Part shown: in pieces, positions 32,041-55,682 of the stretch
Position numbering within the stretch: position 1 is the first letter of the stretch
How the letters are laid out: each line of letters opens with the position of its first letter
IMG/VR virus record: IMGVR_UViG_3300029915_000005
From: a virus
DNA: 64,000 bases
Reading direction: 5' to 3' (one strand)
Notes under the pieces: model-generated
Seen by the model: only the letters and a program-made list of their open reading frames with translations
Told to the model about the DNA's origin: nothing
Database searches by the model: none
Made by a program: the position numbers and the translations under genes

Positions 32041-32908
32041 TTTGGATATGTCAAAACTAAGTTCAGGAGATGTTAAAGAAATCAATGCTAATGTTGAATC
32101 TTTATCTCTATGGATAAAAGATCATTGTTCAGAATTTTTGAAAATGAAAGGAGCAAATGATCTCGTTCGAGGTGTTAGAGAAAACTCACCAAGTATTTTT
32201 ATGGGATATCCAAGAAAAAATAGAAGAAGTATTGAAGGAGAAATATCTACTGAGCTTACTAAAATAGTAGACAAATATATGCAAATGACTGGTTTTACTG
32301 CTCTTCGAGGAAATAGTTTATTTTGTAATAGTGATCCTGAAATGGCTGAACCATGGGGTGAATTATATGTCATATTCCCTATAAATGGATTTACTTTTGC
32401 GTATAGTAAACGACATACTTGTTGTTCAGGGGCAAGTTATATATTTCCAACAGAAGCTATTGACGAAAATTTACGCACATATGTAGACCAAATTTCTGAT
32501 TTTTGGAATCGTAAAAAATACGATGTCCATGGATATTCAGAAAATATAAAAAAATTTTTAAAATATTGGTATACTCTTAATGAGTTTTATTCCAAAAAAG
32601 TAAATTATTTTAATATTACTACAGTAATAAGAAATATTATTAAGACGTACAATTCTTTTACTAACGACGAAAAGGTTATGTTATCTGGTTCAGTAGTTGA
32701 TCGTGCAATTATTGATCTTGGAAGAGAATTGAAACAGTTAGGAACAGATGAAATAATTGCTAAAAAATTCATAGTAAACAATAAATTGACCAATAAAAAT
32801 TTGAAATGGGCTTTAGAAAATAGCTATGATGTGTGGATTCACGGAGCATATATTGCCATTGACAGAGAATTATATATACATAATTTTGATTTATTTGAAA
32901 AACTATAA
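32021..32908 (+). CDS. ADP-ribosyltransferase-like paralogue 5 (leader MLLREF)
   Basis: AGGAG RBS; LVRG...LRGNSLFCNS...WGELYVIFP...YDVWIHG, with a ~100-aa insertion. Confidence 0.5.
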   Translation: MLLREFDLDMSKLSSGDVKEINANVESLSLWIKDHCSEFLKMKGANDLVRGVRENSPSIFMGYPRKNRRSIEGEISTELTKIVDKYMQMTGFTALRGNSLFCNSDPEMAEPWGELYVIFPINGFTFAYSKRHTCCSGASYIFPTEAIDENLRTYVDQISDFWNRKKYDVHGYSENIKKFLKYWYTLNEFYSKKVNYFNITTVIRNIIKTYNSFTNDEKVMLSGSVVDRAIIDLGRELKQLGTDEIIAKKFIVNNKLTNKNLKWALENSYDVWIHGAYIAIDRELYIHNFDLFEKL

Positions 32909-32941
32909 ATACTAAAGAGAATAAATTATTGGAGTAACTAT

Positions 32942-35900
32942 ATGAAAAAGAAATCATTATTGGGATCAACAAAACCATACAGAAATCCAAAGTGGCTTGG
33001 CCCACAAGATAAAGTTGACAATCTTGGCCCAATTCTTGGAGCAAAACCAAAAAAATCAAAAGTTTTGAGCACAAAATTCATGGGATGCAGCAAAAATATG
33101 ACTAATAAAAATATCATTGCGGAAAATAATAAATATTCATCAAATGAAAAAGCACAACTGGCTGCTGTTCGACGAGATGGTTATGCAATTGAATGGATTG
33201 ACAATCCAAGCGAAGCTGTGCAAATGGCTGCTGTTAAACAAAATGGTTATGCAATTGGATACATCAGCAAGCCAAGCGAAGCTGTGCAAATGGCTGCTAT
33301 TCAACGAAATTATCGTGCAATTGAATACATCGACAAACCAAGCGAAGCTGTGCAAATGGCTGCTGTTCGACAAGATGGTTGGGCAATTGAATACATCGAC
33401 AATCCAAGCGAAGCTGTGCAACTTGCTGCTGTTCAACAAAATGGTCGTGCAATTCAATTCATAAAAAAGCCAACAATTAATGTCAAATTAATGGCTAAAT
33501 CAAAAGTTTTGAGCACGAAATTTCAAGGTTGTTCCATAGATCGCTCCAATAGCAATATTATTTCTGAATATAAAGATGATTATAATCCATCCAATGAAGA
33601 ATGGCTTAAAAATGAAATTGATTACGCCTATGAAATTTTTAATAATGAGGAATTTCCAAGAGTGGACAGAGAAGAAGCTCATCGAAGAATAAAGCTTTTA
33701 AATGCTGAAGCAAAAAAGAAAGGATATATTGATAAGTGGAATAAAGAAGCGCAAGAAGAAGCAGAAAAGACTCATATTAAACCAGAACTTTTAGATGTTC
33801 TTGATGATGTACGAGGCTATATTCATCACGGGAAAACTATAAACAAAGCTGATAGTAATATGTTACATAGTATGGGAATTAGTGAAGCTGTAAACAAATA
33901 TCCAATTTCTGCCAGAATAAATCCAAGATCATTAAAAAAATTATCTTTGTTGGGGCCAGAAGATAAACTTGGATTTGGAGCAGGATTAATAACAATCACT
34001 AATAAAGTATATATTGCAGCATGGCATTCAGAAATTCGTGCAAAACGTGGTTATGATATTTGTAGATTAAGTGAAGGAGCAATTAGAATTAGACAGGGTG
34101 GTTGGGATTGCGGAGATAATACAATAATTGAGTTTGGAAAATATGATGATGACACAATTTATAGACTTAAACAAATAATTCCATATGTTACTTCTCCAAC
34201 AAATAAATTTAAATTAGAGTGTGATGCTCGTGGAATAAATAATGATCATTTATATGTGACTGGAAATAAAGAATATATTATGGCAGAATTGGAAGAATGG
34301 TTAACTCCAAGACAAAAAGTTCCACTTCCAGGAAGTGTTATGGCATTTCATATGCAAGAATCAAAAGAAACTCCAAAATTAACATATAGAGAGTTTGCAA
34401 ACGCAAGCAAAGCAAAGAATAAGAAGTGCCCAACTTGTGAAAGCGAATTTAAGAATGTTCACTCAGCGAATCAAAAATATTGTTCCTCGGATTGTGAAGT
34501 GAAAGGAGAGACAGTTAAAAAATTACAAGAAGCGTTTGATAAATCAATAATAAGAAAAGCTGGATTTATTCCTTATTATTTTGATAACTTTGGAAAACTC
34601 AGAATGATGTTTGTTATGAGCAGTGATCCAACTTATGGCGGAAGCAAGTGGATGATAGCTAAAGGGCATATCGATGGAAAAGAAACAGATTTACAAGCTG
34701 CTTTACGAGAAGGAAACGAAGAGTGTGGGGTTAAGCAGTCAAATATTAAATTTATTAAACTTGGGTGGAAAGGTTTAATAAAAGGTTACACAGAATCTTC
34801 TGAAATGACAATTTATATTGGAGAAGTTAAAGACCCAGTTGATTTTGATAAACCAGGTAACGAAATAAAAGCTGTTAAATGGATAACTCCAGAAGAATTT
34901 AATTCGATTGGAAGAAATAGTCAAAAATTTATTGTTGAAGCATGTGTAAACAAAATTGGAGATAAAATGCGATTTTCTGAAATAAAAGAATCAAGAAAAT
35001 TTACAGTTTATAAAGATGGTGGTTTTTATGGCCCAAAATATGAATATGGATACATAGGAGTTCAAGACGAAGATGGGCATGATATGACTTATATTGGAAA
35101 GAAAAGTGTTCCCAATATGAATATACAGCAAGCAATATCAGCCCTTAAACAACAATTTCCAGGATGTGAAGTGAAAATTAAACTATCAAAAATATCTGAA
35201 GGTATGCTCAATGGACTAACTGTTATGTCTCTCGATCAATTTTTGGATGGCGAAAATCCAGAAGAAACTGAATTGGAAGACGAGATGTTGGGAGAAGCTG
35301 GAGAATTTGGTCTTGGTTCTAAATATCGAAACGCAAGTCATAAAGAAATGCAGGATTATCTTGATAGAACAGTATTCAAGAAGAAAAATAAACTTGATCC
35401 ATACACTATGCCATATATTCACCCAAGCAATGTAAAAAAGAATGCAGATGGTTCAGTTCCTATTATTGATGAAAATGGCGATAAGTATGATCTTGATGCT
35501 TTAAGAGATGCTATTACTAAAAGACCTAGTGGCTTACTTAAACAGAATGAGAAGATGAAACACAGTAATGGTACTGCCACAGTTTATTATAATGTTGGTT
35601 TGCCAGCATTAAAAGGATTGTCAGTTAATGAAGAAACAGGAGAATTTGTAGTTGTTGATACTTGCCCTGGTGCAGGTATTTGCAAAAATTATTGTTTCGC
35701 AATGAAAGGAAGCTATATTATGTTTCCTGGAGTTAGCATGAAGTCTGCGCAAACATTAAATTATTTATTGAATGATCCAGAAGGATTTAAAGCAGAATTA
35801 ATTGGTGAAATTTCAAAAGCAATCGCTAAATGGGATAATTTTACAGATAAAGATTTTAATAAAGGAGATGTTGAAGTTTCAATAAGGTGGCATGATTCAG

Positions 35901-54383: not shown

Positions 54384-54614
54384 TCCTGATGCATCCCCTA
54401 GACATGCATCTATATTATTGAATAATTCTGACGCAAGATTGGGTCCATATGCATTTTTAAAACAGACCTCATTTTTAAACCAGATTCAACAATACAGTTA
54501 AGCTGGCTTTCGTCAATTCTGGATGATTTTCGCGCATGTAAAAATATTATCAAACTTTGGAATAAAATCAACATAAATATTGACAAATAAATTTATTTAG
54601 GATATTCTTTATAT

Positions 54615-55382
54615 ATGAATGAAAAAGAACAACTAGCTGCTGTTCAACAAAATGGTTGGGCAATTGAATACATCAGAAATCCAAGCGAAGCTGTGCAACT
54701 GGCTGCTGTTCAACAAAATGGTTGTGCAATTTACCACATCAGCAAGCCAAGCGAAGCTGTGCAACTGGCTGCTGTTCAACAAAATGGTTGTGCAATTGAA
54801 TACATCAGAAATCCAAGCAAAGCTGTGCAACTAGCTGCTGTTCAACAAAATGGTTGGGCAATTGAATACATCAGAAATCCAAGCGAAGCTGTGCAACTAG
54901 CTGCTGTTCAACAAAATGGTTATGCAATTGAATACATCAGAAATCCAAGCGAAGCTGTGCAACTGGCTGCTGTTCAACAAAATGGTTATGCAATTCGAGG
55001 CATCAGCAAGCCAAGCGAAGCTGTGCAACTGGCTGCTGTTCAACGAAATGGTTGGGCAATTGAATACATCAGAAATCCAAGCGAAGCTGTGCAACTAGCT
55101 GCTGTTCAACAAAATGGTTGTGCAATTTACCACATCAGCAAGCCAAGCGAAGCTGTGCAACTGGCTGCTGTTCAACAAAATGGTTGTGCAATTAAATACA
55201 TCAGGAATCCAAGCGAAGCTGTGCAACTGGCTGCTGTTCAAGAAGATGGTTGGGCAATTTGCTACATCGACAAGCCAAGCGAAGCTGTGCAACTGGCTGC
55301 TATTCAACGAAATTATCAGGCAATTCAACACATAAAAAAGCCAACAATTAATGTCAAATTAATGGCTAAATTGCTGTCTTAA
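54615..55382 (+). CDS. DUF4116-like tandem-repeat protein (11 x 22 aa)
   Basis: 66-nt tandem repeats encoding QLAAVQQNGxAIxxIxxPSEAV; promoter TTGACA(54580)-N17-TATTCT, ATG 6 nt later. Confidence 0.8.
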   Translation: MNEKEQLAAVQQNGWAIEYIRNPSEAVQLAAVQQNGCAIYHISKPSEAVQLAAVQQNGCAIEYIRNPSKAVQLAAVQQNGWAIEYIRNPSEAVQLAAVQQNGYAIEYIRNPSEAVQLAAVQQNGYAIRGISKPSEAVQLAAVQRNGWAIEYIRNPSEAVQLAAVQQNGCAIYHISKPSEAVQLAAVQQNGCAIKYIRNPSEAVQLAAVQEDGWAICYIDKPSEAVQLAAIQRNYQAIQHIKKPTINVKLMAKLLS

Positions 55383-55442
55383 AATATTCAAAACAAAGCA
55401 CTTATTGTTAACAAATAAATTTATTTAGGATATTTTTTATAT

Positions 55443-55682
55443 ATGAATGAAAAAGCACAAATGGCTGCTGTTCAACAAAATGGTTATGCAATTGAATACA
55501 TCAGCAAGCCAAGCAAAGCTGTGCAAATGGCTGCTGTTCAACGAAATTATCGTGCAATTCAATACATCGACAAGCCAAGCAAAGCTGTGCAAATGGCTGC
55601 TGTTCAACAAAATGGTTGGGCAATTGAATATATAAAAAATCCAACAGAAACAGCAAAATTGGCATCAAAAAGAAACTCTTGA
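55443..55682 (+). CDS. Short DUF4116-like repeat protein (3 repeats), tandem duplicate
   Basis: Same repeats; the upstream ~35 bp is nearly identical to that of 54615. Confidence 0.7.
   Translation: MNEKAQMAAVQQNGYAIEYISKPSKAVQMAAVQRNYRAIQYIDKPSKAVQMAAVQQNGWAIEYIKNPTETAKLASKRNS

Follow-up and report, generated by a model that had tools for sequence, protein, structure and literature searches.

Capture of a free-standing DUF4116 gene between two linker copies of a phage polyprotein gene, with putative release by a head protease

An inserted DUF4116 block in polyprotein 2

The viral record IMGVR_UViG_3300029915_000005 (IMG/VR), of which a stretch of 64,000 nucleotides (nt) was analysed here as the window, carries a gene named polyprotein 2 (P0001; 32942..36403, plus strand), a single open reading frame (ORF) of 1153 amino acids (aa). 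A block of DUF4116 repeats (33143-33500) was found inserted in this gene between two copies of one linker, at residues K38-E61 and K186-E209, as an earlier note made from the sequence had claimed. Taken as a whole, the probable history is that the phage's own DUF4116 gene was copied in frame behind a conserved leader, with the linker on both sides of the copy and putative release by a protease. The module order of P0001 was leader, linker 1, five DUF4116 units, linker 2, unknown modules and zinc ribbon, followed by NUDIX, an internal MRFSEI tag (ATG at 34967) and a GP88 domain. Pfam matched DUF4116, NUDIX and GP88; the zinc ribbon was found in addition.

The captured block (plus strand) is composed of an N-cap (NEKAQ), five units of 66 nt and a C-cap (IKKPTINVKLMAK). 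DUF4116 repeats occurred at three places only in the window: in this block, in the free-standing gene A (54615..55382, plus strand; 255 aa, 11 units) and in the free-standing gene B (55443..55682, plus strand; 79 aa, three units). All three exceeded the Pfam gathering cut-off for DUF4116 (PF13475; 24.9 bits), with scores of 43.1 bits for P0001, 108.1 for gene A and 42.9 for gene B. The block was colinear with a whole free-standing gene, minus the ATG and minus the last three codons and stop. Both of its ends had been correctly read in the earlier note: the 5' end, AATGAAAAAGCACAA, equals codons 2-6 of gene B, directly after its ATG, and the final 40 nt match gene A without a difference up to ...ATGGCTAAAT, which lies three codons ahead of the gene A stop. 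Beyond ATGGCTAAAT, gene A continues with TGCTGTCTTAA and the polyprotein ORF with CAAAAG. AATGAA also occurs in the native continuation of the recipient (P-S-N-E-E after linker 2), which gives the 5' junction a microhomology of up to 6 nt, while the 3' junction displays the microhomology AAAT, common to the gene A exit and the sequence before linker 1.

Alignment of the block with the two genes at 54615-55682 yielded 86-93 % identity, versus 70-77 % with the DUF4116 genes that related phages carry. The direction of copying was therefore out of the phage's own free-standing gene and into the leader gene. Gene B was 93 % identical to block units 2-4 over 187 nt and had the same N-cap. The units formed a mosaic (unit 2 versus B1, 63/66; unit 3 versus B2, 62/66; unit 5 versus A11, 58/66), so that either sequence has passed between the three loci after the capture or an older form of A/B served as donor.

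Some further properties of these loci were observed. Genes A and B possess nearly identical upstream regions of about 37 nt (54580-54616 and 55408-55444), each with a sigma-70-like promoter: TTGACA-17-TATTCT at 54580-54608 for gene A and TTAACA-17-TATTTT at 55408-55436 for gene B. The -10 hexamer ends 7 nt before the ATG, hence the transcripts may be leaderless, or else an AGGA located 12 nt upstream serves as ribosome site. Gene A contains an internal six-unit duplication (54636-55361), in which A2 equals A8 and A1, A4 and A7 are nearly identical. Differences between units clustered at unit positions 4-5, 8, 11-12 and 14-15 in all three loci, and where a captured unit departs from its best donor, the amino acid is mostly altered as well (6/7 for units 2-3), a pattern reminiscent of a variable binding surface. 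The DUF4116 repeats of the polyprotein are also overlapped by ORFs longer than 100 codons in other frames (33117-33464, plus strand; 33140-33457, minus strand), most likely by-products of a stop-free repeat and not genes. In the cultured relatives Atu_ph07 and SCTP-2, DUF4116 was present in many copies, all annotated as hypothetical.

The direct repeat and the two linkers

The 20-bp direct repeat announced in the earlier note was exact: the 20-mer AAATCAAAAGTTTTGAGCAC occurred in exactly two copies, at 33053-33072 and 33497-33516. No further copy was found in the window with up to three mismatches, and dinucleotide shuffles gave a mean of 0.03 matches. The copies are 444 nt, i.e. 148 codons, apart and the insert is therefore in frame. 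This repeat opens a longer duplication of 77 nt (71 % identity), which can be extended to 33053-33148 (96 nt) versus 33497-33598 (102 nt) at 72 % identity; even after its first 26 nt the duplication outscored 933/933 control windows of the same ORF. At the protein level, the two linkers shared the pattern KSKVLSTKF-x-GCS-x4-N-x-NII-x-E. Linker copy 1 (K38-E61; 33053..33124, possibly to 33148, plus strand) ends with N-I-I-A-E and linker copy 2 (K186-E209; 33497..33568, possibly to 33598, plus strand) with N-I-I-S-E, after which the native body begins with YKDDYNPSNEEWL....

The residues that are invariant in the family (L, S, K, F, G, C, S and the final Glu) were all kept in both copies, and it is the variable positions that differ. 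Linker 2 is thus under constraint although it is detached from the leader. Retention of the linker on both sides, with its invariant residues surviving, provides indirect but specific evidence for a functional linker.

Synonymous differences between the copies (counted by reading) amounted to 2/9 sites in the exact-repeat region versus 4/8 at the conserved residues further on. The exact 20 nt were considered as a fresh recombination scar, which was rejected: they are mostly conserved codons and the contrast of 2/9 to 4/8 is not significant. Transposon-type insertion with target-site duplication was likewise rejected, the insert being purely DUF4116 coding sequence and the duplication being 72-100 nt long and diverged. 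Neither inverted repeats nor transposase-like features were detected in 32900-33700. Contig collections, from which the window's own contig is absent, were scanned with the exact 20-mer and with back-translated KSKVLSTKF: 0 and 2 chance matches and no true copy were obtained in the viral contig collection, and five chance matches, out of frame or in unrelated ORFs, in the metagenome contig collection.

Empty and reused slots in relatives

The leader family was searched with words of the 67-residue leader, exhaustively by phmmer with residues 186-560, and by pattern scan. The word search returned three other proteins; phmmer and the pattern scan added P0061, P0064, P0068, P0070, P0071, P0074, L090 and L092. 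The conserved N-terminal leader (residues 1-37, KPYRNPKWLGPQDKVDNLGPILG...; 32942..33052, plus strand) was kept in relatives: it was 78 % identical to that of P0001 in P0057 and 77 % in P0058, and recognisable in P0075 and in all of the added proteins.

Ten leader proteins (P0057, P0058 and the eight that were added) displayed a single linker and no DUF4116. The empty allele with one linker that the earlier note suggested looking for thus exists, also in a syntenic position: in L088 and L089 the P0058 gene is preceded by ART-like paralogues and followed by the DNA polymerase. The linker of P0057 and P0058 leads straight to the zinc-ribbon/NUDIX part. In its single form, the linker reads LSxKFxGCS, then 8-13 variable residues, then [ILVM][ASGD]E; this end was encountered in 13/13 family linkers, while the preceding 8-13 residues vary freely. 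The interval from linker to zinc ribbon was hypervariable in the family, being absent (0 residues) or 85 residues long, or else holding an unnamed domain in one to three copies.

P0075 (220 aa) possesses the same leader and linker, followed by an unrelated CxxCxGxG zinc-finger module where P0001 has DUF4116. After this module came a decayed second linker (KFKNLSIKENIISE) with a second NIISE, and then the same body start as in P0001. The slot behind the leader has been used more than once.

Free-standing DUF4116 genes of the relatives G004 and G005 start with MNEK and end with KKPTISVQMMAKLLS-stop (KKPT..AKLLS). In G004 the gene lies directly before a MoxR-like ATPase gene, the same as genes A and B in the window. 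As G004 also carries a single-linker leader gene (L092), together with a Peptidase_S77 gene, it shows the configuration expected before the capture. These free genes, along with the ten leader relatives devoid of DUF4116, bore out the proposal of the earlier note that a free-standing gene was copied into the polyprotein. The GP88 and leader-NUDIX parts were also separate genes in relatives.

Another protein, P0056, was identical to P0001 over its first 118 residues and contained three DUF4116 units. It showed the same 5' junction as P0001 on a separate contig (ENA, 3.7 kb). When the 3' junction was used as protein query, P0001 was the only match.

Proposed course of events

The recipient is probably the local form of a zinc-ribbon/NUDIX gene with leader that related uncultured phages of the T4 superfamily carry at the same place in their genomes, and the ancestral home of the donor is upstream of the MoxR-like ATPase, at 54.6-55.7 kb. 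A stretch running from codon 2-3 to the fourth-last codon of the donor was probably copied in frame into the slot behind the leader, with junctions at the microhomologies AATGAA (5') and AAAT (3'). The anatomy of the junctions suggests a template switch with two switches or illegitimate recombination. Re-entry into the recipient about 100 nt upstream of the exit point would leave the linker, with its LSxKFxGCS core and hydrophobic-small-Glu end, on both sides of the insert. The phage's T4-type (S77) head protease would cut at the motif, as happens in the T4 internal proteins and Alt, and the DUF4116 solenoid (N62-E209) would be released as a separate protein packed in the capsid. The pay-off may be that an otherwise early-expressed protein is delivered ready-made with the DNA.

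The putative timing of both partners was read from promoter-like motifs only, 'late' for polyprotein 2 and 'early' for the DUF4116 genes. A T4-type late-promoter-like box (TATAAATA; 32904..32911, plus strand), a consensus match only, lies 31 nt before the polyprotein ATG. Over the whole window, 23 T4-type late boxes were found versus 16 expected, an enrichment that is not significant.

Predicted structure and release

An alpha-solenoid of short helical units has been predicted for the DUF4116 family (PMC8078820). The AlphaFold model of residues 62-209 was such a solenoid, with two helices per 22-residue unit, at a predicted local distance difference test score (pLDDT) of 85; it was built with a shallow alignment of repeat windows from within the window, and the single-sequence run reached a pLDDT of 35. 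In the model, the last solenoid helix extends into KSKVLSTKF while the GCS...NIISE tail is disordered and would therefore be accessible. Fold searches of the PDB with the solenoid retrieved generic helical-repeat matches only (Foldseek E >= 0.7; VIA Z <= 5.6), and no function for DUF4116 follows from them.

The hydrophobic-x-Glu ends of P0001 are I-A-E at residue 61 and I-S-E at residue 209. Cutting at both would free the segment N62-E209, predicted to have 148 residues, 16 kDa and an isoelectric point of 9.0. Release of DUF4116 by a T4-type head protease is plausible in view of the conserved hydrophobic-small-Glu motif, and Peptidase_S77 was encoded in 3/5 related contigs. The most likely fate predicted for the protein is loading via the leader and cuts after E61 and E209, by which a 16-kDa DUF4116 protein would be freed in the head. 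More tentatively, and with rather low confidence, the linker may be viewed as a portable and autonomous cassette with the message 'load and cut here': the slot behind it would be reused, each insertion would re-create the putative cut site, early host-takeover genes would be turned into virion cargo, and polyproteins would grow by one releasable module at a time.

Opposing observations and alternative explanations

Several observations weigh against the reading favoured here. No S77 protease gene was found within the 64-kb window, and [IL]xE was not enriched in the P0001 ORF (16 sites versus about 11.5 expected). The linker copies are 72 % identical and each is slightly nearer to the linker of another phage than to its partner, so that a simple in-situ duplication is not proven. 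The similarity of the duplicates beyond the Glu covers 24-30 nt, too short for significance alone. Finally, P0056 ends with ...KLVAKLLS and the native DUF4116 stop, like a free gene.

The lack of enrichment of [IL]xE and the absence of the protease gene from the window would both suit a protein that is never cut, in which the linker would be a tether within the structure or a motif for binding, and DUF4116 would remain the N-terminal domain of a large 'polyvalent' enzyme; the extension of the last solenoid helix into KSKVLSTKF agrees with this as well. We regard such an uncut protein as a real possibility, although the less likely outcome, because the hydrophobic-small-Glu end persists in all 13 linkers behind residues that vary freely, because the motif stands again behind both inserted modules (P0001 and P0075), and because relatives encode an S77 protease.

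A two-parent origin accounts for the divergence of the linkers differently: they would stem from two diverged alleles or genes and not from duplication in place, DUF4116 having been captured in an earlier step. Two routes may be envisaged. Either a P0056-like leader-linker-DUF4116 gene was fused by deletion at AAAT to a leader-linker-body gene, the second leader being lost, or the 5' part was later converted by a related phage. The closest counterpart of linker 1 was the P0058/L088 linker (19/25 residues, plus a common stretch of 17 nt, AATATGACTAATAAAAA, in L088) and that of linker 2 was the leader-attached linker of P0075 (19/24, with FQGCSID in common), versus 17/24 between linkers 1 and 2. 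The margin to the linkers of other phages is nevertheless small, the linker differences coming to just 2 residues in 24, and VLST and N-x-NII-x-E are common to the two copies uniquely. P0056, identical over 118 residues yet ending like a free gene, gives a further argument for two parents; its ending may point to a split form or to another route, or else to an assembly path through repeats at the end of its 3.7-kb contig. Protein searches found neither a companion protein with linker 2 and body nor a second leader protein from a P0056-like strain, and the assembly path is therefore favoured for P0056. Moreover, two adjacent leader genes were present in none of the relatives. Judged from their sequences, the linker copies represent an old or composite duplication and not a fresh one; they may derive from two diverged alleles, or their 5' part may have been converted later by a relative. 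A two-parent origin in full is, however, rather unlikely, and copying of the phage's own gene into the leader gene with linker on both sides remains the preferred explanation.

That an assembler stitched the DUF4116 block into the ORF via common repeats is very improbable. The repeats do have k-mers of 18-40 nt in common with genes A and B, and P0056 may be such an artefact, but only 4-6 nt are common with the donor at both junctions, less than an assembler could bridge; the reading frame continues through the insert without stops, the exact 1153-aa protein was recorded from six contigs of two sources (JGI and ENA), and the 5' junction recurred in P0056. The reverse direction, with DUF4116 ancestral in the polyprotein and the free-standing genes derived from it, has nothing but the shared sequence in its favour and is hardly credible, given the ten leader relatives without DUF4116, the free genes of diverged relatives, which agree in caps and in neighbour gene, and the start and stop that are present in the free genes and missing from the captured block.

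Relation to known systems

In T4, gp21 cuts after Glu in motifs of the I/L-x-E type (ITE/LTE) and thereby removes the leaders by which internal proteins and Alt enter the prohead (PMC5694885, PMC9026906, PMC3012670). Alt is trimmed at both ends, at ITE-6 and LTE-619 (PMC9026906, PMC5694885, PMC3012670), and foreign proteins fused to a T4-type leader are packed into heads and delivered (PMC5694885, PMC9026906). P0001 and its relatives resemble T4 IPI, IPII, IPIII and Alt in that an N-terminal peptide ends with hydrophobic-x-Glu and unrelated bodies follow a conserved leader; unlike in the T4 internal proteins, the motif recurs inside one chain, and packaging and cutting are putative. Between the 61-residue leader and the 10-residue capsid-targeting sequence of T4, the I-A-E end is presumably the only likeness. 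Polymorphic internal-protein loci of T-even phages, attributed to work by Repoila et al. in 1994, reportedly carry different cargo genes behind a conserved targeting leader. A similar turnover of cassettes at the leader is suggested here; in contrast to the T-even loci, where cargo genes are separate and their source is unknown, here the same genome holds the donor, the junctions can be read, and a single ORF carries the linker twice.

The anatomy of the junctions recalls fork stalling and template switching (FoSTeS) and microhomology-mediated break-induced replication (MMBIR), forms of microhomology-mediated template switching defined in eukaryotic and bacterial chromosomes. Features in common with these and with insertions of the exon-shuffling type are a distant template, microhomology of 4-6 nt and a duplicated flanking target; unlike in those cases, the mechanism was deduced from junction anatomy only, and in a phage polyprotein.

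Polyvalent proteins of phages and conjugative elements have been described by their domain architectures (Iyer et al. 2017, PMC5512222). P0001 is comparable to them, as unrelated DUF4116, zinc ribbon, NUDIX and GP88 are united in one polypeptide and the architecture varies between relatives; whereas that survey dealt with architectures only, a specific capture event with a duplicated protease-type linker is described here. In phiKZ and SPN3US, an S80 protease processes ejection proteins after the Glu of A/S/G-x-E, at multiple sites per propeptide (PMC5694885). Putative Glu cuts at short motifs in head proteins are a common trait, but the proteases of the present phage group are of the S77 type and not S80, and the ejection proteins are encoded by separate genes.

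Leader-directed cargo, Glu-specific cutting and multidomain phage proteins were thus already known. The novelty is a documented growth step, comprising donor, recipient, empty relatives, junction microhomologies, a linker on both sides and a second module in the P0075 slot. Multi-module proteins are common among uncultured phages related to T4, and the present record of how one of them grew is unusually complete. If true, it suggests that a function otherwise 'expressed early' can be turned by phages into one 'delivered with the DNA'.

Other features of polyprotein 2 and of the window

The window is phage DNA with a G+C content of about 30 %. Its B-family DNA polymerase shared 40-45 % identity with its counterparts in Phosso, Atu_ph07 and 121Q, which are jumbo T4-related phages, and its other genes included a ClpB-like ATPase, homing endonucleases and many ART-like paralogues. 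No match to the P0001 ORF was obtained by blastn against cultured phages, nor to its leader and residues 186-527 as word patterns in the viral contig collection.

The unnamed domain of about 130 residues corresponds to 33900-34330 of the window (...ALI.P.N.VY.G..H..LR...G.VRIR..G...IEF...) and is without Pfam match; one to three copies were found between leader and zinc ribbon in P0059, P0061, P0062, L090 and L092. In P0070 and P0074 the leader is internal, behind another tagged module (MRLSDIKE...GATGAGSI...FFGGDP...). In other relatives, this tagged module constitutes a separate small ORF or a different fusion (L088, 4185-4409; L092, 4835-5335), which indicates that modules were shuffled widely in the group.

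P0001 runs past the end point of its orthologues P0058, P0064 and P0059 (ACDGKI-stop and similar). From 34967 (residue 676) onwards it reads MRFSEIKE..., which resembles the tag with which the product of the following gene begins in relatives (MRLTEI..., L088, 7005-7580); read-through into a tagged gene downstream, with fusion of the two, is therefore a second way in which the polyprotein grew. The GP88 part (PF17338; 35540-36115) corresponds to a free-standing gene of 410 aa in the closest relative (L001, 6010-7242), with 63 % identity, and in other phages GP88 was accompanied by many different N-terminal extensions in proteins of 634-1058 aa.

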